Of a DNA stretch of 64,000 bases, positions 19,520 to 51,259 are shown piece by piece. Positions within the stretch are counted from its first letter, which is position 1, and the number at the start of each line of letters is the position of its first letter. The position numbers and the translations under genes are program-made. The notes under the pieces are model-generated. The model worked only from the letters and a program-made list of their open reading frames with translations, did not search any database and was not told the DNA's origin. Source of the DNA: Mobula hypostoma (Eukaryota); the NCBI RefSeq assembly GCF_963921235.1, contig NC_086097.1, forward strand, positions 135,162,001 to 135,226,000, given 5' to 3'.

Positions 19520-21113
19520 CAGGTGCCAAGAATCAGCTGCTTTAAAAGGGGTAGAGAGGGGGATAAAGGGGAGGAGGGGTGGCATTACTGGTCAGGGATA
19601 CTATTACAGCTACAAAAAGGGTGGGTAATGTAGCAGTATCCTCTTTTAAGTCAGTATGGGTAGAAGTCAGGAACAGGAAGGGAGCAGTTACTCTATTGGG
19701 AGTATTCTATAGACCCCCTGGGAACAGCAGAGATACCGAGGAATAGATTGGGAGGCAGATTTTGGAAAGGTGCAAAAATAACAGGGTTGTTATCATGGGT
19801 GTCTTTAACTTCCCTAATATTGATTGGCACCTGATTAGTTCCAAGGGTTTAGACGGGGCAGAGTTTGTTAAGTGTGTCCAGGACGGATTCCTGTCACAGT
19901 ATGTTGACAGGCCGACTAGGAGGAATGCCATACTAGATCTAGTATTAGGTAACGAACTGGGTCAGGTCACGGATCTCTCAGTGGGTGAGCATCTGGGGGA
20001 CAGTGACCACTGCTCCCTGGCCTATAACATTATAATGGAAAAGGATAGAATCAGAGAGAACAGGAAAATTTTTAATGGAAAATTTTTAATTGGGGAAGGG
20101 CAAATTATGAGGCTATAAGGCTAGAACTTGTGGGTGTGAATTGGGATGATGTTTTTGCAGGGAAATGTACTATGGACATGTGGTCGATGTTTAGGGATCT
20201 TGCAGGATGTAAGGGATAAATTTGTCCTGGTGAGGAAGATAAAGAATAGTAGGGTGAAGGAACCATGGGTGACAAGTGAGGTGGAAAATCTAGTCAGGTG
20301 GAAGAAGGCAGCATACATGAGGTTTAGGAAGCAAGGATCAGATGGGTCTATTGAGGAATATAGGGTAGCAAGAAAGGAGCTTAAGAAGGGGCTGAGGAGA
20401 GCCAGAAGGGGGCATGAGAAGGCCTTGGTGAGTAGGGTAAAGGAAAACCCCTTTACTTGGTAGTGTGGAGGAGCAGAGGAATCTGGGGGTACATGCCCAC
20501 AGATCCCTGAAAGTTGCCTCACAGGTGGATAGGGTAGTTGAGAAAGCTTATGGGGTGTTAGCCTTCATAAGTTGAGGGATAGAGTTTGAGTCGCGAGGTA
20601 ATGATGCAGCTCTATAAAACTCTGGTTAGGCCACACTTGGAGTACTGTGTCCAGTTCTGGTCACCTCACTATAGGAAGGATGTGGAAGCATTGGAAAGGA
20701 TACAGAGGAGATTTACCAGGATGCTGCCTGGTTTAGAGTATGCATTATGATCAGAGATTAAGGGAGCTCGGGCTTTACTCTTTGGAGAGAGTATTAAGAG
20801 GAATAGATAGTGGACAGCCAGTGCCTCTTCCCCAGGGCACCACTTCTCAATACAAGAGGACATGGCTTTAAGGTAAGTGGTGGGAAGATCAAGGGGAATA
20901 TTAGAGGAAGGTTTTTTACTCAAGAGTGGTTGGTGCATGGAATGCACTGCCTGAGTCAGTGGTGGAGGCAGATACACTAGTGAAATTTAAGAGGCTACTA
21001 GACAGGTATATGGAGGAATTTAAGGTGGGGTGTTATATGGGAGGCAGGGTTTAAGGGTCGGCACAACATTGTGGGCTGAAGCACCTGTGCTGTGCTGTAC
21101 TATTCTATGTTCT
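19520..21113 (+). mobile_element. 5'-truncated, internally deleted CR1
   Basis: APE fragment jumps at ~20451 to post-RT sequence; ends ctattctatgttct; same subfamily as 31441-33912. Confidence 0.85.
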
Positions 21114-27553: not shown

Positions 27554-27559
27554 AATAAA
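27554..27559 (+). terminator. Candidate ATAD2 polyadenylation signal
   Basis: AATAAA about 230 nt after the stop, at the end of an AT-rich stretch and just before repeats begin. Confidence 0.6.
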
Positions 27560-27664
27560 ATTTTGATGAAACAACTTGTCCCACCTATCAATGTTGTAAA
27601 TTAGTCAGAATTACCAGCTCAGAAGTAGGCCCATTGACAGCTGACTAAGTCTCTACTATCTATA

Positions 27665-27744
27665 CTGGGGTTCTCAACCTTTTTTATGCTATGGACCAAT
27701 ACCATTAAGTAAGTGGTCTATGGACCCACGACAGGGAACACCTG
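27665..27744. mobile_element. ~80-bp hAT-type MITE; second copy ~45407-45476
   Basis: ctggggttctcaaccttttt...gggaacacctg inverted ends; the second copy ends ggttgggaacccctg. Confidence 0.55.
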
Positions 27745-28681
27745 CTCTGTACTAATTCCATTTCTCAGTACTTGGTCCCTAACCAAGGACACTTTGATGA
27801 TTTAAGTCCTTGCCTAGATGATTAACTGTTCAAAGATTACCTGTCTCTACCATCACCTCAGGGAGCACGTTCCAGATTGCAACCATTCTCTGGATGGGGA
27901 AAAATCTTCCTCATAAGCCCTCTAGCCTTAGATACTTGTACATAATTTGGTATACATTGGAAAAAGGGATTGGATCACCCACAAGAATATATGAAAGGGT
28001 TTCGGCCCAAAATGTCAACTTTCCATAGATGCTGCCTGACCTGCTGAGTTCCTCCAGCATCTTGTGTGTGTTGCTTTGTAAATATAGGGAGGTTTGGGAC
28101 CAGAACAACACCATGTCATCTGAACAATTAAAAACAGTGCAATGAAGATCAAGTCGTTGAATCGTATTCTACTTTACGTTAGAACATTTTTTACTTTGAA
28201 TGTCATTCTGCATTAAGGTTTCAATGCTCTGCTTGTTTAGGAGAGGATTACAGTCAACATGAGAGAGATCTGTCCTAGAGGATACTGGGCTGTGTGGTTA
28301 AGTTGTTTTTGAAGGGGTGTTATTAATTTATTTTATAGGCATGGGAGATTTGACTGACTTGGCATCACTATCCAGGACCAATGCATAATTTGCAGTGACT
28401 CCAACTACTTATCAGGTCCCTCTTCAGCCTCTGCTCCAAATAGCCAATGCAGTCTTTCGCACCTTGAACCTCCATTCCAGGCAACATGCTGGTGAATTTT
28501 TCCTGCACTCTCCACCGCAATCATGTCTGTTTTATTGTGAGATGATCAGAGCTGCTCACAAATTCTGGCTGTGGCCTAATTGTTTATTCTGTTTTGCATG
28601 TGCTTAGATTACTATTCTAACTCGCAATGCTAGCTTGCTATATTGATCACTTCAGTCTTGAATACTGTTTCTGAAAGAGAA

Positions 28682-29014
28682 ATGGTATATTTGTCCTTGA
28701 TACTACGTTACCCGACATTCCAGCTGAGAACCCCTTATTGACAATTCTACGAACTGACCTCGGAATTTCTCATCTTTGTTCAATTTTGTTTACCAGATTT
28801 TATTCAGGTTAAAAACGGTCACAAACTTTCAGTTGAGGATTTGCAAGTAAAAGTTAGGAAAATAATATTGCCACAATTTGTGCAGACACTCTTCAAAGAT
28901 GAAGGTGTCTTGGAAATGTACATGTATCATACCAACAACCATGTCAATACAGGCGAAGGAGGAAGAAACACCCAACAAAAGATTTCATTTGAATAGCAAG
29001 AATACTTTGTACAG
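28682..29014 (+). pseudogene. Relic coding exon X1 of an unidentified multi-exon gene
   Basis: 111 codons MVYLSLILRYPTFQLRTPY*QFYELTSEFLIFVQFCLPDFIQVKNGHKLSVEDLQVKVRKIILPQFVQTLFKDEGVLEMY...KISFE*QEYFVQ with 2 stops; strong phase-0 donor CAG|gtaaga; 5' edge uncertain (ATG 28682 or acceptor at 28655). Confidence 0.6.
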
Positions 29015-29399
29015 GTAAGAATATTACATCTGCATCAAGGAAAACAAAGCAAACAATTTACAGAATTAATAGGAATGGGAAATGATGACAATAGACCCAC
29101 AACAGTTAAATGGCAATAATAAACAATTGTTTCAAACTTCTGCGGAAATAATTCTGTCCTTAGCTTTGTCCGGGTCTGGTAAACAAGTAGATGGTTTGAA
29201 TGTAACCATGATTTTCAAATTTATTATGAGAAAACCTATCACAACAAATAGTTTCACAGCTTATTTGATTTTAATGTTTTCTGGGGAAAGAATACTTAAT
29301 TACAATTAAATCAATTGTACTGCTCTTCTGTCAAAAGCAGAAAATAATTTGGCATGGTTACATCCAGCTTATTGGGCAATGTAAACTCCAATTAGCAAC

Positions 29400-30025
29400 T
29401 TTTTAGATACTTTATTGATCCCAAGGAAAATTAGTGTCTCAGTAGTCTTACAAATGCACAGAAATATTAGAAAATAAGAAAGAGTAAAAAATAAGTTACC
29501 TCAAACAGTCTTAACCGGTGGGGGGGGGGGGGGGGTCATCATTTCACCTGCTGTAGGTTGAGTTATTATAGAGCCTCATGGCAGACGGTAAAAGTGACCT
29601 CATGTAGCGCTCTTTGGAGCTGTGCAGTTTTCCTCTGTTCAGCCAAGGTAGCATACAGAGGGTGAGAAACATTGTCCAGAATTGCCAGGATTTTCCGTGG
29701 GGTCCTTTGTTCTGCCACAGCCTCCAGTGTGTCCAGTTTGACTCCTATAACAGAGCCAGCCTTTCTAATCAGTTTATTGAGCCTGTTGACGTCATCCATG
29801 TTGATGCCATTGCGCCAGTACACCACTGCATAGGAGATTGTACTGGCAACATCAGATTGGTAGAACATGTGAAGGAGAGGCCTGCATTAGTCAAAGGACC
29901 TGTCTCCCGAGGAAACACATGACCCTGACCCTTGTACGCAGCCTCTGGTGCTCCACTCGAGTTTGTCAGCCAGGTGCACCCCCGAGTACCTGTTGGTCCT
30001 CACCACAACCGCGTCCTCACCATCA
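29400..30025 (-). mobile_element. Rex1/Babar-type LINE 3' fragment; related piece at ~46525-46730 (+)
   Basis: MFYQSDVASTISYAVVYW...RLNKLIRKAGSVIG...SHPL; YLEVHLDDRLEWSTN...HLYFLRR. Confidence 0.7.
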
Positions 30026-30252
30026 ATTTAAAGATTTGAGGATATGAAGGGATATAAATTTAATGTAAGTCAAGTCTGAAGTACATTTATTATCAAAAAA
30101 TGTGTGTATATATCACCATATATAACCCTGAGATTTGTTTTTTGCGCATATTCAGTAAATCCAAGAACCCGTAACAGAATCAATAAAGGCAACACTCAAC
30201 AGGGATTCCAAAGGATTTTGCACTAGCTGATTTTTTTTTTCACTGTTTGTAG

Positions 30253-30391
30253 AATCATAATGGCAATGTAGTTGCAGTATAGAAGATACTTAATGCATTC
30301 TGTGCAATCTTTGAAGGTGGGATTTTGGATGATCAATGCCTGTTTAGCATAGACAAAATTTATTGTAAATATGCCCTTTGCTGTTATAAAG
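30253..30391 (+). pseudogene. Relic coding exon X2
   Basis: T-run acceptor ...cactgtttgtag|, donor AAAG|gtaact; NHNGNVVAV*KILNAFCAIFEGGILDDQCLFSIDKIYCKYALCCYK; enters phase 0, exits phase 1. Confidence 0.62.
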
Positions 30392-30831
30392 GTAACTGGC
30401 ACTGGAAGACCCATTAGTACAAATGTTTGACAAAATCAAATGTCTGGTTTAGTTACAGAGCAAAATACTTTCAAAGTGTTGGCATGATAACTTAAATTGG
30501 ATAATTCTGTATTATATTAGTTTAATACAGTACACAAGTACACAATGTAAAAGTTCAAGAAATGTTGCAAAGTAACAAACACTAGCTTTTAGCTGATTTT
30601 TTTTTTCAAAATGAGATTGGGGACATGTGTCTTGAGTCATCTGCAATCCCTGTAATTTTATACTGTTCTGCTGAAAATGAGATTTGAATCCATTGTTTTT
30701 TAAATACTGAACACTAACTGATATTCAATTTTCAAAGTATTATAATAATGTAAAAGTACTGGGGTCTTACTGATGTGCCTAATATTTCGTAGCAAAGCAA
30801 ATTCCTGTGCATTACTTCCTCTTTGTTACAG

Positions 30832-31313
30832 AGTGCTACCTTATTGACCTATTGCAATTTTACAGAAAACTAGATGCATTTGCAATGGCATATGCTTATT
30901 TCATAGCTAGAAAGGAAACTATACATTATCAGATGCTTAGATACCCTGAAGGTCAAAGATACCTGACAAACTGCAAATCAAGTTCTAAAAACGTGGTCTT
31001 GAATTATTACCTGGACAATCTTTTGTAAATGGCAAACATAAGTTGCCTTCCAAAATTTAAATTTGTCCCGAAGGCTGAAGATGTTCCCATTCCCTCTAGC
31101 TGTCTTAAACGTTGGCACCTCGAGCTTGAAAGGATAAACACCACCTCTCCTTAATATACAAAAAGAACCTGGTTTTTGGAAAACATTTCAAGTGAAGTTT
31201 CGTTAAGCAAAGAATGGGTAAAATGCATTGGTTATATCAGTATAGCTTCTGTATTCCTGATTAATTTACATAAGTTTTTGGTATGTTTTTAATTGATGGC
31301 ACAAAAATATTTG
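30832..31313 (+). pseudogene. Relic coding exon X3
   Basis: cttcctctttgttacag|AG completes GAG with X2; ECYLIDLLQFYRKLDAFAMAYAYFIARKETIHYQMLRYPEGQRYLTNCK...NLL*MANISCLPKF...TSP*YTKRTWFLEN...; 3' end uncertain (donors after 31217, 31280 or 31313). Confidence 0.6.
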
Positions 31314-31440
31314 GTGAGGAATTACTTTACCTACAGTAATATTCCATTCTGTTGTGCAGGCTATACTGTCCTGATTTTTAAAGACTGGTTTGTTACTGCA
31401 TTTTAAATACTGTAAAATAGCTTTAATGTCAAATTAACTT

Positions 31441-33912
31441 AGGAGAAGGTAATGGAGGCAGCAGTTAGGGCAGTCGAGTGCTCCGTTTGCAGGATGAGGG
31501 AAGTCAGGGCAAGCACAATTGCCCCTGATGACTACACCTGTAAAAGGTGCATCCAGCTGCAGCTCCTGACAAACCGAGTTAGGGAGCTGGATGAACTTCG
31601 GATCATTCATGAGGCAGAAATAAACAGGAGTTACAGAGAGATACTCACCTCTAAAAGTCAGGAGGCAGGTAGCTGGGTGACTGTCAGGAAAGGGAAGGGG
31701 AGTAGAGAGAATGAGCAGAGCACCTCTGTGGCCATTCCCATCAATAATAAGTATACCGTTTTGGATACTGTTGGTGGGGACGACCTACCAGGGACAAGTT
31801 GCAGTGGTTGCGTCTTTGGCACCGAGACTGGACCCTCAGCTCAGAATGGAAGGAGGGAAAAGAGGAGAGCAGTAGTGATAGGGGATTCGATAGGGGGACA
31901 GATAAGAGGTTCTGTGGAAGAGATTGAGAATCCCCGATGGTCTGTTGCCTCCCTGGTGCCAGGGTCCGCAATATCTCGGACCGAGTTCTCAGTATTCTCG
32001 AGGGAGGGTGAGCAGCCAGATGTCGTGATCCATGTAGGGACCAATGACGTGGATAGGAAGAAGGAGGAGCTCCTGCGAAGAGATTTTAGGGAGTTAGGTG
32101 CAAAGTTGAAGGACAGGACCTCCAGGGTTGCAAACTCAGGATTGCTACCCCTGCCACGTGCTAGTGAGGCTAGAAATAGGAAGATAATGCAGCTAAGTAT
32201 GTAGCTAAGGAGTTGGTGCAGGAGGGAGGGCTTCATGTTTCTGGACAATTGGGCCTTGTTCCAGGGAAGGTGGGACCTGTTCCGACGGGACGGGTTGCAC
32301 CTGAACTGGAGGGGACTAACGTCCTTGCAGGAAGGTTTGCTAGTGCTGCTCTTTGGGGGGGGGGGTTAAACTAGATTTGCAGGGGGAGGGGAACCAGATT
32401 GTTAGAGCAGATAGTGAGGTGGAGGAGGATAAAGGTCATGTGAGAACTGCAAGTATAGTGCATGAATTAAAGCCAGATCTAACATACAAAGAGGCTTTGA
32501 GGAAAGAGAAGCAGAATAAAGGGTGTAAAGGTAGTAAGGTAGAAGGGCTAAAGTGCGTGTACTTCAATGCAACAAGCATCAGGAACAAAGGTGATGAACT
32601 GAGAGCTTGGATACATACATAGAATTATGATGTAGTGGCCATTACAGAGACTTGGCTGGCACCAGGGCAGGAATGGATTCTCAATATTCCTGGATTTCAG
32701 TGCTTTAAAAGGGATGGGGGGGGAGGGAAGGAGGGGTGGCATTACTGGTCAGGGATACTATTACAGCTACAAAAAGGCTGGGTAATGTAGCAGGATCCTC
32801 TTTTGAGTCAGTATGGGTAGAAGTCAGGAACAGGACGGGAGCAGTTACTCTATTGGGGGTATTCTATCGGCTCCCTGGAAGCAGCAGAGATACTGAGGAG
32901 CAGATTGGGAGGCAGATTTTGGAAAGTTGCAAAAATAACAGGGTTGTTATCATGGGTGACTTTAACTTCCCTAATATTGATTGGCACCTGATTAGTTCCA
33001 ATGGTTTAGACAGGGCAGAGTTTGTTAAGTGTGTCCAGGATGGATTCCTGTCACAGTATGTGGACAGGCCAACCACGGGGAATGCCATACGAGATCTAGT
33101 ACTAGGTAATGAACCGGGTCAGGTCACAGATCTGTCAGTGGGTGAGCATCTGGGGGACAGTGACCACCGCTCCCTGGCCTTTAGCATTATCATGGAAGAG
33201 GATAGAATCAAAGAGGACAGCAAAATTCTTAATTGGGGAAAGGCAAATTATGAGGCTATAAGGCTAGAACTTGCGGGTGTGAATTGGGATGATGTTTTTG
33301 CAGGGAAATGTACTATGGACATGTGGTCGATGTTTAGAGATCTCTTGCGGGACATAAGGGATAAATTTGTCCCGGTGGGGAAGATAAAGAATGGTAGGGT
33401 GAAGGAACCATGGGTGACAAGTGAGGTGGAAAATCTAGTCAGGTGGAAGAAGGCAGCATACATGAGGTTTAGGAAGCAAGGATCAGATGGGTCTATTGAG
33501 GAATATAGGGAAGCAAGAAAGGAGCTTAAGGGGCTGAGAAGAGCAAGAAGGGGGCATGAGAAGGCCTTGGTGAGCAGGGTAAAGGAAAACTCCAAGGCAC
33601 TCTTCAATTATGTGAAGAACAAAAGAAGGACAGGAGTTAAGGTAGGACTGATTAGAGATAAAGGTGGGAAGATGTGCCTGGAGTTCAAGTGGGATATTAG
33701 AGGAAGGTTTTTTTTACTCAGAGTGGTTGGTGTGTGGAATGCACTGCCTGAGTCAGTGGTGGAAGCAGATACACTAGTGAAATTTAAGAGACTACTAGAC
33801 AGGTATATGGAGGAATTTAAGGTGGGGGGTTATATGGGAGGCAGGGTTTAAGGGTCAGCATAACATTGTGAGCCGAAGGGCCTGTACTGTGCTGTACTGT
33901 TCTATGTTCTAT
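31441..33912 (+). mobile_element. CR1 with ORF1 and APE but RT deleted
   Basis: ORF1 ECSVC...CKRC and VVIHVGTND; ORF 32736-33851 joins APE/tether to the ORF2 C-terminus at ~33683; CR1 tail ctgttctatgttct. Confidence 0.9.
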
Positions 33913-33975
33913 ATCAAGCTGGGAGTGTTCTTGGCCAATAAAGGGAAAAAATCATCCTCATTCTGTTGATTGTAG

Positions 33976-38049: not shown

Positions 38050-39200
38050 GTTGTTATTTATGATTTGCATTAACAACCACGTGGCCGGAATAAAACGCAA
38101 GGTTCCTCGCTGCTCGAGTCCCTGAAGCTGTACGGATTCTTTGCTGAAGGTCCCGAAACGTTAACCATCGTTCACCATCCATAGACACTGCTCGACACGG
38201 AGTTCCTCCAGCACATCGTTTTTTTAAGGCGTCCAAGTTGGCTACTAACACAAAAATGCAGTGACAGGCAATATTGCGATGAGGATGGCGCCTCTTACCT
38301 CAGAAGGACTATCACCGGAGCTGATCGGCCTGCGGCTGTCGTAAAGAATGGTTTACGGTGGAATCGTCAGATGCGAGCCGATTACGTCAACGCGTCGGGC
38401 GTCGCCCCTCTGATAAAATAAATCGGCGGATTAATTAACCGGGTTAATATCAAACGGTTCGTCGTGAGCCACTCCAGCCGGCCGGTTCCGTCATCTAAAG
38501 GGCGGAAGAAGGGGAAGGTGAGGCGGCCGGCGGTGGTATAGGAAGTGCCGCTATTTCCATCGGTATCTGTTCCACTCAACACTGAGGAGCCGGCGGGAGG
38601 CCGCAACCCACTGCTCCCCATCTCTCCATCCAGCATCGACGCGTCATAGAACCGACCCCCCCCCAACTAAGACTGGTGCTGACCGTTAGATAATGTGCGG
38701 ACCAATCAGTGCTCTCCGCACCGCGCCGGAAACACCAATCAACGCCTTTCCCTGCGCAGCGTGCACCAATCAACATCCTCTGAGCCGTCTCTCGCCCGCG
38801 CGCACGAATCAGCGCCCTTTCCCCGGTGTTGTTCCGTGCCATGCGCACCACTCAGCGTCTTTCTCCCTCCGCGCGCACCAATCAGGCGCCCTGCCTCGCG
38901 TGTTCAGCTGTCGGCGGAAGACGCACGGGCAGGACAAAAGGGGCCTAGCCGGAGGCGCGCCCCGCTCTTGCCGCCCTCCGCCCACTGCCGACTCCTATTG
39001 GTTGGCGGGGGTGGGGTAGGGTGGGAACGGGACTGCGCGCGACTCCTGACCTCCTTCCTTCCCTCCCTCCCTCCCTCCCTCCCTCCCTCCTTCAGGTGGG
39101 TGCCCTGTGTGTTCCCTGCTGCATCGTAATACCGCTCAGTATGGAGGCTGCGGGACGGTGCCTTTGGGGGAAGTATCTTTTCTTTGTTTCTTCTCTCTAA
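38050..39200. promoter_or_regulatory. CpG island / ZHX1 promoter region
   Basis: Most conspicuous CpG-dense non-repeat segment in the window; contains ETS-like GGAAGTG (38541), CRE-like TTACGTCA (38382), several CCAAT boxes, and + strand donors AAG|gtgagg (after 38517) and CAG|gtgggt (after 39095) as candidate first-exon ends. Confidence 0.85.
39050..39092 (+). repeat. (CCCT)n/(CCTT)n microsatellite
   Basis: ctccttccttccctccctccctccctccctccctccctccttc immediately before the donor at 39096. Confidence 0.85.
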
Positions 39201-46900: not shown

Positions 46901-48580
46901 ATGTTCAAATGGCCAGCTAAATAAGATTTTATATTGGGCCCCATTAACAGAAAGGATGGGTTAATAGAGTCATCGGATTTTCAGTGCCTATATTTTGGAT
47001 AGTTGACTGTTGGAAACTGGGAGAGAGTTTGTTTGCATTTCTTCTCGCACAATTAGGTTTAAAGATTATTGCCCTATAAAGGAAGTTATTTGGCCTGTCA
47101 TGTGTGAAAGACCAAATAAAAATAAATCCAGTCTAATTTCATTTTCCAGCTTTTGGAGATTCTGGTGTCTCGTGTATTTTTCATTCATTTTTTTAATTGA
47201 GGGCTTCTGCTTCCATTGTACTTGTAGAGAGTGAGCTCCAAACTCCCACCACTGTCATTGGGGGAAACTATTACTTGTCAACACTCCGCTAATCTTGCTC
47301 TGTCTTATTCCTTTGATGCATACTTAACTACCACATTAATTGGCCTTTAGAAAGTTGGTTGTGGGTTATCTATTTGAAATGCAGCAGTTTTTCCAGTGCT
47401 CCCACACAGCTATTGAATAGTGTTTCAAGATTTAGACCTAGCTTCCATGAAAGAGTGATTTTTTTTTTCCATGAGGATAAGTCTGACTTGGATTGAAATC
47501 TGCAGGTGGTGGTGCTTCTGTTTGCTACTAACCTTGTCCTTCGTCTCGTAGTCGTCATGGGTTCTGTCAGAGTTGGCTTGGCAAAAATTGTTTTACATTT
47601 TGTAACTTACATGTGGCCGGAGTAATGGATAGAGCTACTTTGTCTTCAGTGACGTTGGGTTATAAGAGATGGTCATCCTGGCAAGCATTCCCTCATACTC
47701 CCTTTTCTTGCTTTTATGCATTTTAGGGAATTGAAGGGTGAGATTGATGCCATAGCATAAACTGCCTCTTACCTGCTAAGTAGCAACAGTATTTGCGTTT
47801 TTTTCTTAAAGCAAAAAGTGATGAAAACACTTGGAAGGCTGAGCCGCATCTGTGGAAGGAGAATCAATGTTTCAGCTCCAGGGCCCTTCGTCAGAGAAAC
47901 ATGAAAGATTAACTGTTTCTCCTTCCACAGATGCTACCTTACCTCCAGAATGTTTCCAGTAATTGTTTTCATTTCAGATTTACAGCTTCTGCAATTACTT
48001 TGATTTTCAGCCACCAGTATTTATGTGATTTGCTCAACTTTTTTTTTGATCAATGTGACACACACAGTATTGATTTGTACCATTGAACATCAAAGGAAGT
48101 GGCTAGACTTTCCATTTCAAGATCATCATTGCCTTCCACTATCATATTGCAAATACTGTTTGCCACTTCCCAGCCTATGCCTGAATACTGTCTACGTCTT
48201 GCTGCATGTAGTCTTGATCTGCTCCTTTGGTGATGAATTCCAATTAGAATTGAGTGTATATAAGGTGAAATTGGTCTATTGTATAGTTAAGTGTGTGGCT
48301 TTTACTGTCTTGCTGTAGAAACTCTGCTAACATTGGGGCCAGTGTTCTTTATTTAGTTAATGCTCCAGTGATGCTTATTAAATAATGGATTTACTGTTGA
48401 GAAGTAAGTAGCTTTTGTAGTCCTGAAGTAACATTTTATTCTTTTTTTAATCTATAGATGAATGCACTGTGATAGAGCTACTGCCTGCGGGGTGGAACCT
48501 AAGAGATAATCCTGAAGATAGATCAACCTGCAGTGGCATTAACATTTTCTGAGAAACCAATCCACTTTTCACCACTGACC

Positions 48581-51259
48581 ATGGCCAGCAAAAGGAAGTC
48601 TAAAGTTCCTTGTATGGTCCCTGCAAATGAAAGTCTGGACCAGAACCAAGATCTGGATCTGGTTACACATGATGATGACCTTCCTCCAGATATTTCTGAT
48701 GAGAGTTTGACAGCAGATGGTACTGTTGTTGATGATGAGACTATTTCAGAAAAGGAAATACAAGATAATCAAATCAGAAAACTAGAAGGAGGCTATGAAT
48801 GTAAATATTGTACTTTTGAAACACAGGACTTAAATAAATTTACAGTACATGTTGACTCAAAGCACCCAAATGTTATTCTCAATCCATCCTACTTCTGCGT
48901 GGAATGTAATTTTATGACCAAAAAGTATGATACTCTTAATGACCATAATGCTAGATATCATTCAGGTGAAATAAATTTTAAACTTAAAATGGTGAAGCAC
49001 AATAATCAAACTGTCTTTGAACAGACTGTTGAAGAATGCAACAGTAATGGGATTCCTACAAATGAAGATCAGGCAGAAAACACTGAAGCTGCTTTAACAG
49101 GAATATCAATAAGTAAGACACCAATCATGAAGATAAAACATAAAATTGAGACCAAAAGAATCTCTCTGTCTCCAAGTTTGGTGGATGAATTCGCTGCTAG
49201 ACAAGAAAACAATGATGAATCTGTGGGAAGCAACTCAGCCTTGGGATCTACTAGTACCGGTGGACTTTGCATTAACCAAGAAACAAATGGTGTAATAATT
49301 GATTCAGCAGGTATGAGTCAATTAATACCACCTCCAAATTCTAATTTAATTCCAAAAGTTATGATTCCTTTAAACAGCATTCCAACTTATAACACTAATA
49401 TGGATGTAAATACTCACCTAGTGAACTCCTTCAACAAATTCCCCTATCCTACACATTCAGAAGTTGTAACACTAAAAACTCAGACAAAATATACGGAGGA
49501 ACAAATTAAAATCTGGTTTACTGCTCAACGGCTTAAACATGGTATCAGCTGGACCCCAGAGGAGGTGGAAGATGCCAAAAAAAAACTGTTTAATGGAACT
49601 GTGCACACTATACCACAAACAATTACAGTCATACCAGCACAGATTTCAACATCTAATGGATTGCAGCAAATCCTCCAGCCTTGTCAGATAGTTGGTCAGC
49701 CAGGCATTGTCTTGGCACAGGTTACCAGTACAAATGTGGTTGCTGGGAATTCTCCTGTCACTGTTACTGTTGCTGGAGTTACAAATCAAATGCAGTGGCC
49801 AAAACGCAGAACGCAGGTAAGTGAGATAGGTCCAGAAGCAAAAAGGCCAAACAACTCTCAGCTTCCTCAACTTGCTTCACAAGGAGGTTCCCTTAATTCT
49901 GCCTCGGGCACTGATCCCTACAGTGTCCGCCTCAAAAAGACAAAAGAGCAACTGACAGAGCTAAAGGCTAGCTTTAATAGAAATGCGTTTCCCAGCGATG
50001 CAGAGATTGCTCGAATTATACAAGTAACAGGCCTCTCAAGAGGTGACATCAAGAAGTGGTTCAGTGACACAAGGTATAATCATAGGAATTCAAAAAGTAA
50101 TCAAAGCATTAACATTGCTGAAGTCACCAACACCATAATTTTGGATTCGGGTGATGATACAACGACTTCTGAATCCCTTGTAATAAACCAGCAGCGCAGA
50201 CATGGGTGGCATGCCTTTCCGGATTTCACTCCCCAGAAGTTTAAAGAGAAAAGTACAGAGCAGCTTCAAATCCTTGAAGAGAGCTTTCTTTCTAATCCAT
50301 TTCCCACCGATGATGAGATTAACAAGCTAAGGACTGACACAAAACTCACCAGGCGGGAGATTGATGTCTGGTTTTGTGAGAGAAGGAAAGTTAAATATTC
50401 AGAAGATAAAAATGAGAGTGGAAAGGTAATCGATGGGGAGGTTGAAGTCAAGCACAAGGACTCTGAAGAAGGGCGCACCAAATCACATTATGGGCAAGTT
50501 CATGCTACGTCCTTGGCTAGTGGCTTAGCAATACCAAAAGTAATGGCTGGTGCTGCTAGTAGACTGTATAAGAAAACTCCAGAGCAGCTACATTTGCTTA
50601 AAAGTGCATTTGTCCGCACACAATGGCCATCCCCTGAGGAATATGACCAATTAGCTGCAGACAGTGGACTGGCCAGAACTGATATAGTAAGTTGGTTTGG
50701 AGATACAAGGTATGCTTGGAAAAATGGTAACTTGAAATGGTACTATTATTATCAAAGTGGTAATGTGGACAGTCAAAATGGACAAAGCCACATTTCCTTC
50801 AGAAAGTATAAAGGTAGAGGTAGATCGAGAGGTAGACCACGAGGAAGAGGAAGGTACAGAGGAAATGGAAGATCTCACAATTGGAGTGAAACAACGTCAA
50901 ACAAAACATCTTTGGGACTTGCTGCTTCAGGTCAAAATGTACTTGAACAATACTATTTGAAACACAAATATTTAAATGAAGAGGACCTTGATGATCTTGT
51001 GGCAAGATCACATATGAGTTATGAAAGCATCAGAGGATGGTTTGTACAAAGGCAAGCAGAAGGTGTTGTTTCAGAGAGCAATAACTCGGATGGACAATAC
51101 CCTGGTGAAGATGAGAAAAATGAGCCACTTGAAGAGGAAGAAGATTGGGCTGCTGAAGAAAATGAAGATGATGCCTCTGATGGAAGTGGCAGCAGTGACG
51201 TGTGGAAGCCTCCTTCACAAAAGCGAAATGAAGTAACTGAACCAGATGATGAATTCTAA
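48581..51259 (+). CDS. ZHX1: Zinc fingers and homeoboxes protein 1 (892 aa, single coding exon)
   Basis: accATGG Kozak; MASKRKSKVPCM; two C2H2 fingers (CKYC...H...H, CVEC...H...H), multiple homeodomains (IKIWFTAQRLKHG, IKKWFSDTRY, IDVWFCERRK, IVSWFGDTRY), ZHX1-type LKWYYYYQS and RG-rich stretch; tandem downstream of ATAD2 as in human; exon acceptor tctatag at 48457. Confidence 0.93.
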   Translation: MASKRKSKVPCMVPANESLDQNQDLDLVTHDDDLPPDISDESLTADGTVVDDETISEKEIQDNQIRKLEGGYECKYCTFETQDLNKFTVHVDSKHPNVILNPSYFCVECNFMTKKYDTLNDHNARYHSGEINFKLKMVKHNNQTVFEQTVEECNSNGIPTNEDQAENTEAALTGISISKTPIMKIKHKIETKRISLSPSLVDEFAARQENNDESVGSNSALGSTSTGGLCINQETNGVIIDSAGMSQLIPPPNSNLIPKVMIPLNSIPTYNTNMDVNTHLVNSFNKFPYPTHSEVVTLKTQTKYTEEQIKIWFTAQRLKHGISWTPEEVEDAKKKLFNGTVHTIPQTITVIPAQISTSNGLQQILQPCQIVGQPGIVLAQVTSTNVVAGNSPVTVTVAGVTNQMQWPKRRTQVSEIGPEAKRPNNSQLPQLASQGGSLNSASGTDPYSVRLKKTKEQLTELKASFNRNAFPSDAEIARIIQVTGLSRGDIKKWFSDTRYNHRNSKSNQSINIAEVTNTIILDSGDDTTTSESLVINQQRRHGWHAFPDFTPQKFKEKSTEQLQILEESFLSNPFPTDDEINKLRTDTKLTRREIDVWFCERRKVKYSEDKNESGKVIDGEVEVKHKDSEEGRTKSHYGQVHATSLASGLAIPKVMAGAASRLYKKTPEQLHLLKSAFVRTQWPSPEEYDQLAADSGLARTDIVSWFGDTRYAWKNGNLKWYYYYQSGNVDSQNGQSHISFRKYKGRGRSRGRPRGRGRYRGNGRSHNWSETTSNKTSLGLAASGQNVLEQYYLKHKYLNEEDLDDLVARSHMSYESIRGWFVQRQAEGVVSESNNSDGQYPGEDEKNEPLEEEEDWAAEENEDDASDGSGSSDVWKPPSQKRNEVTEPDDEF

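Follow-up and report, generated by a model that had tools for sequence, protein, structure and literature searches.

The window analysed here, a stretch of 64 kb in whose coordinates all positions are given, lies in the largest contig of the 3.48-Gb genome of the ray Mobula hypostoma and contains the interval between ATAD2 and ZHX1. A reading made from the sequence alone (hereafter the sequence-only reading) had named these flanking genes rightly: the upstream exons align with human ATAD2 (E 8.7e-40), and the ZHX1 protein shares a 90% cluster with the ZHX1-like proteins of Mobula birostris, Hypanus sabinus and Hemitrygon akajei. The ZHX1 coding sequence, within 48503-51259, runs as a single open frame from 48581 to its stop and encodes 892 residues, and exactly this protein is present in the protein collection searched. 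A CpG island at ~38.2-39.1 kb probably represents the ZHX1 promoter. Within the island, a strong minus-strand donor at 38299 (GAG/GTAAGA) points toward the ATAD2-ZHX1 interval and a plus-strand donor at ~38518 (AAG/GTGAGG) points the other way; judging by these motifs, the ZHX1 promoter is likely bidirectional, its antisense first exon being directed toward the 3′ end of ATAD2.

According to the passages of PMC7144352 that bear on it, the Zhx1/Zhx2 region has remained stable between elephant shark and human, and the legend to Figure 1 of that paper lists ATAD2, DERL1, FAM83A and HAS2. A search of literature listings returned no paper on any gene of the ATAD2-ZHX1 interval.

Anatomy of the three-piece frame

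The last exon of ATAD2 and its AATAAA at 27554 are located ~1.1 kb upstream of a reading frame that is distributed over three pieces of the forward strand. The proposed GT/AG junctions of this frame (29014/30253 and 30391/30832, phases 0 and 1) are confirmed, as are the spliced length of 286 codons to 31217 and the five in-frame stops (TGA 28739, TAG 28994, TAG 30280, TAA 31026 and TAA 31152). The interval contains the following features.

28682..29014, forward strand: piece 1 (111 codons), which may be the first coding exon; in-frame stops 28739 and 28994, donor CAG/GTAAGA
29015..30252, forward strand: putative phase-0 intron 1, with high-copy repeats over ~29430-30200
30224..30242, forward strand: 19-nt direct repeat, copy 1, perfect
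30253..30391, forward strand: piece 2, candidate exon of 139 nt; stop at 30280, donor AAG/GTAACT
30392..30831, forward strand: candidate intron 2, phase 1; single-copy, GC 31%
30590..30608, forward strand: 19-nt direct repeat, copy 2, perfect, within candidate intron 2
30832..31406, forward strand: piece 3, which may be the last exon; in-frame stops 31026, 31152, 31290 and 31404
31443..33915 (approximate ends), forward strand: LINE-type insertion directly behind piece 3
33937..33942, forward strand: AATAAA just past the LINE, possibly an old polyadenylation signal

Both ends of the frame have to be redrawn. Position 28682, taken previously for the border of a spliced segment, is not an acceptor; the site is an ATG in a good context, with G at -3 and at +4. 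The frame of piece 1 is open upstream to 28634, and a possible phase-1 acceptor is present at 28656. According to an approximate splice-site matrix, the two donors score 7.4 (29014) and 4.3 (30391) and the two acceptors 4.8 (30253) and 6.9 (30832), and the exon end that had been placed at 31217 would have to rely on a very weak donor (score -0.3). The frame continues beyond 31217, through one more stop (TAA 31290), to TAA 31404. Just upstream of 31290, piece 3 encodes a hydrophobic stretch in which the 19-residue hydropathy reaches 1.9; single-sequence AlphaFold2 models are unusable (mean pLDDT 45.9 for piece 3 and 38.5 for piece 1).

The two copies of the 19-nt direct repeat lie 366 bp apart and flank piece 2, the intervening DNA being single-copy. 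The repeat may have arisen as a target-site duplication or through templated copying. The acceptor at 30253 takes its pyrimidine tract, and a CTGAT that resembles a branch point, from copy 1; given that this tract is a direct-repeat copy, it need not be a splice signal. The insertion behind piece 3, which we take to be of LINE type from its endonuclease-like ORFs, has a second family member at 19533-21113, 12 kb away in the same orientation and ~91% identical over the shared parts.

Stop sparsity and composition against chance expectation

The five stops in 286 codons compare with 20.3 expected (uncorrected P 3.7e-5). Chance was assessed by searching for the best three-segment chain with junctions and frame freely chosen, and on 27561-31440 this unguided search picks exactly the same four junctions. 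The score was reached in 7 of 4313 simulated 3.9-kb stretches under an order-4 model and in 24 of 8761 under an order-5 model of the unmasked neighbourhood, a null rate of 0.2-0.3% per stretch of equal length, which by our scaling amounts to ~2-4% per 64-kb window and to about a thousand chance chains of equal score in a 3.5-Gb genome. In a control on real sequence (264 kb of neighbourhood, both strands, 268 overlapping tiles, 40% masked by self-comparison), the frame ranks second of 97 chains with 16.1 bits, behind a chain that contains true ATAD2 exons and ahead of one that is an ATAD2 exon; the best chain off recognised genes scores 11.2. When splice scores are added, the frame is third at 39.5, behind two ATAD2-containing chains, and the next chain reaches 37.6, so that the margin of the frame is small under this scoring. 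Thus, the frame is a local outlier, yet by the same scaling a few per cent of windows yield such a chain by chance. The downstream flank of the window contains, at ~131175-134003 of the forward strand in window-relative numbering, a three-segment chain with five stops in 298 codons, a splice score of 29.6 and a nearly equal combined score.

The earlier point that each of the stops lies a single C>T transition away from CGA, CAG or CAA carries no information because it holds for every stop codon. An excess of G at codon position 1 over position 2, a statistic picked after inspection of the data, is equalled by 13 of the 1144 null chains that score at least 8 bits. Overall codon periodicity is weak, with a chi2 of 13 (reached by 148 of the 1144) against 28-70 for pieces of ZHX1. 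The translation had also been called protein-like, which applies to part of it: the composition of the whole frame gives a z of 0.69, which is not significant given that 23% of 1413 control stretches reach it, and protein-like composition is confined to the core of piece 1 (28742-29014), which clearly favours its frame.

The absence of frameshifts can be set against the number of stops. We estimate that ~4-5.5% of random substitutions in the frame create a stop, so that five stops imply 10-14% decay. At an assumed 0.03-0.08 indels per substitution, 3-10 frameshifts would be expected in the course of such decay and none is seen here; under the assumed indel rates, finding five stops together with zero frameshifts has a probability of at best 0.001-0.02. 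This combination fits neutral decay poorly and keeps chance in play, a difficulty that is softened by ascertainment, since only relics free of frameshifts get noticed.

Searches for homologues and further copies

The most extensive search, a full HMMER comparison that covered piece 3, yielded two matches among 1.84 billion protein representatives, both of them tandem-repeat proteins reached through summed short stretches, and no credible homologue. Word-based searches of the protein collection with pieces 3 and 1 gave 0 of 1485, 0 of 565 and 0 of 8 candidates, blanks that count as weak evidence by the tool's own account; the collection includes the RefSeq proteins of three other rays and likely covers sharks. 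These large searches used single pieces (3 and 1) rather than the joined frame, which lowers the sensitivity to remote families. No credible match for the pieces was obtained in NCBIfam or PHROGs, nor among viral contigs and phages, and Rfam has no match in the interval. A Pfam match of piece 1 to Omp85_2 (PF19143; E 0.0024-0.0037) was rejected as noise: it reaches 17 bits against a cut-off of 23.1 and spans 87 of 351 profile positions, and pieces 2 and 3 match nothing. Likewise rejected was the best hit of the PDB sequence search, multicystatin (E 0.0048), in which no single stretch passes alone. Possible resemblances to a NACHT P-loop (GEGG..T..KI), STING, C8orf76 and FAM83A were considered and dropped.

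Within the genome itself, no second copy was found: among the first-look candidates scored, and in tblastn of the neighbourhood, only self matches fall below E 0.29. Two weak matches (E 0.3 and 0.66), not significant genome-wide, fall in one repeat family. This shared repeat, present at two distant loci (L002:1251-2123 and L003:981-1909) and 76-83% identical between them, contains a frame with a faint resemblance to residues 97-160 of piece 3 (genome-wide E 0.3-0.7).

These results offer no support to the suggestion that the gene may be intact in other jawed vertebrates, in that the protein searches returned no protein homologue; searches of annotated proteins neither demonstrate nor refute an intact orthologue in sharks.

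Other samples and related species

Contigs from 4 of 23 sequencing runs were compared with the window, such contigs omitting rare variants; among the 12 of 67 indels and 40 of 199 substitutions listed, none of the listed substitutions lies inside the three pieces. One contig, derived from a different sample of this species, spans 30924-31161 with 0 differences, the stops TAA 31026 and TAA 31152 included. The agreement with this independent sample indicates that these two stops are not assembly errors.

The frame had been described as free of frameshifts, which is correct for this genome; organisms B and E are one base short at 31112. The missing base is seen at depth 8.3 in B and 4.6 in E, in data from different studies, and in its absence the frame of piece 3 terminates after a few codons and meets 9 stops downstream; the change may have gone in either direction, although it is this genome that carries the sparser frame. 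In piece 3, substitutions amount to 31/497 positions in B and 28/404 in E (6.2-6.9%), and contigs rich in intron sequence show 44/830 and 27/546, respectively (4.9-5.3%), a difference that is not significant (p 0.46 and 0.21). Hence, judged by its divergence relative to the intron-rich contigs, piece 3 gives no indication of being under selection in the compared species. A contig of organism B that covers piece 1 and its flanks differs at 30/853 positions (3.5%), somewhat less.

In organism G, a close relative, a contig that is 2% divergent departs from the reference at 30343, inside piece 2, and continues with 89 unmatched letters. The DNA runs of this organism contain 0.07 of the words, close to the 0.05 that would be expected with 30200-30343 alone present. 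Together, these data hint at a deletion (or an insertion) inside piece 2.

With respect to transcription, contigs from runs that we guess to be RNA bridge the borders at 30253, 30391 and 30832 unspliced, at depths of 2-10; they may represent read-through, an antisense intron or DNA, and spliced forms may coexist with them. Neither of the joints 29014/30253 and 30391/30832 appears spliced among the 15 of 26 joints listed, a repeat-crowded set from 4 of the 23 runs that leaves room for splicing. None of the runs listed among the 23 is both on record as RNA and a carrier of the locus, and run X5 covers neither piece 1 nor piece 2.

Origin of the frame

The stretch is not a working protein gene, and the full protein cannot be made from it today. 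Its stop sparsity, its in-phase splice sites and the G bias at the first codon position make a coding relic the likeliest single reading, as had been proposed from the sequence. We suggest that the three pieces are an old orphan pseudogene, the remnant of a small three-exon protein gene, and consider this proposition evenly balanced between being right and being wrong. The further claim that the gene was inactivated in this lineage is too narrow, in view of the loss of 31112 in two species and of the conservation of piece 3, which is no better than that of intron.

Such a gene would have been transcribed from the forward strand just behind the ATAD2 polyadenylation signal, and translation would have started at the ATG at 28682. 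Removal of one phase-0 and one phase-1 intron would have joined the pieces into a message for a product of ~310 residues, or of 348 if the stop at 31290 is a later one. The hydrophobic tail at the predicted C-terminus might have served as a membrane anchor. The 3′ end could have been formed at the AATAAA at 33937, subsequently set apart by the LINE insertion. The death of the gene would probably predate the split of this ray from at least two of the sampled relatives, and thus the divergence of organisms A, B and E, or would have occurred in parallel in each, to be followed by neutral drift that introduced stops here and a one-base deletion in other species. A parent gene that was fast-evolving or confined to cartilaginous fishes would explain the missing homologues.

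The main competitor is a chance pattern, in which neutral AT-rich intergenic DNA that never was coding happens to combine low-stop stretches with phase-compatible GT/AG sites; we consider this a serious explanation, if on balance a somewhat improbable one. It accounts readily for the lack of homologues in all searches, for an amino-acid likeness that is not significant, for a conservation of piece 3 that is no better than that of intron and for an acceptor, at 30253, that sits in a direct repeat. Moreover, five stops without any frameshift are awkward for a long-dead gene, and the null rate of 0.2-0.3% per 3.9 kb, a few per cent per window, has to be read in the light of the many windows that were read. 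Against chance, the frame stands out clearly from 318 kb of unmasked neighbouring sequence, it shows the additional G bias, piece 1 opens with a well-placed ATG, and the frame remains stop-sparse here past 31112, where the shifted frame of the relatives meets 9 stops.

The readings other than an orphan pseudogene and chance are, even taken jointly, unlikely. The pieces could conceivably derive from a decayed coding sequence of a transposable element or virus, or from a fragment captured long ago; the apparent introns would then have been inserted later. The 19-nt repeat that flanks piece 2 in the manner of a target-site duplication would suit such an origin, as would the location of both weak own-genome matches in one repeat family; nevertheless, the pieces are single-copy at both the DNA and the protein level, these matches fall short of genome-wide significance, and Pfam, PHROGs, NCBIfam, viral contigs and phages reveal no mobile-element domain or relative, so we regard it as quite improbable. 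A non-coding transcript with no coding past, either read-through from ATAD2 or antisense from a two-way ZHX1 promoter, would make use of the strong donor at 29014 and of the minus-strand donor aimed at the interval, and in three organisms the interval is partly represented in contigs whose runs we guess to be RNA. However, these contigs, which may be DNA, continue across the borders between exon and intron without splicing, Rfam has no match, and the stop sparsity is left unexplained; this explanation is very improbable. Barely credible is a live gene whose stops are edited out, read through or misassembled: the disruptions of the frame in this genome consist entirely of stops, and its splice sites seem intact, but the independent contig reproduces two of the stops without a difference, two other species carry the frame-breaking deletion, and piece 3 lacks exon-like conservation. 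U-to-C editing that removes stops occurs in some land plants and is not known from vertebrates.

A broader version of the pseudogene reading posits an undescribed vertebrate family, located between ATAD2 and ZHX1, that is intact and unannotated in some sharks, skates or chimaeras and was lost in stingray-type rays; its product would be a protein of ~310 residues, possibly tail-anchored, without a known fold or relative. We consider this version distinctly unlikely. If an intact outgroup orthologue exists, the locus would give access to a jawed-vertebrate protein family missed by annotation and would allow a gene loss in rays to be dated, within a block that PMC7144352, in its passages on this region, otherwise describes as stable from elephant shark onward; if there is none, the frame would be one more dead or accidental one. 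The case also illustrates that chance alone brings together low stop density and in-phase splice sites in a few per cent of windows, and therefore such finds need cross-species support.

Comparison with known systems

ATAD2, which is listed for the syntenic block of Zhx1 and Zhx2 (PMC7144352), is a neighbour of ZHX1 in the ray. Where the ray has the candidate relic, between these two genes, the passages of that paper on the block mention no gene.

Several known kinds of non-functional or unusual frames were considered and rejected. A processed pseudogene does not agree with two intron-like gaps and with the lack of a parent gene in the same genome, and an ORF derived from a transposable element does not agree with a single copy devoid of any element domain recognisable in Pfam, NCBIfam or PHROGs. 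A recoded gene, whether edited or read through, is contradicted by a contig that is identical across two stops, from a run whose RNA status is a guess, and by the broken frame of two relatives.

The closest parallel is provided by the unitary pseudogenes, such as GULO or UOX in humans. What defines the established examples is an intact orthologue elsewhere, and for the frame of the ray none was found among annotated proteins, either in the protein collection or among the 1.84 billion representatives; the frame is thus filed as a candidate unitary pseudogene only. With respect to the other hallmarks of this class, the disabling mutations are truly present in the DNA, as five to six in-frame stops of which two are confirmed independently, and no functional paralogue was detected in the genome among the first-look candidates scored. 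Like the unitary pseudogenes, the frame is single-copy, intron-bearing and disabled, and lies between conserved neighbours in a genome in which no working paralogue was found.
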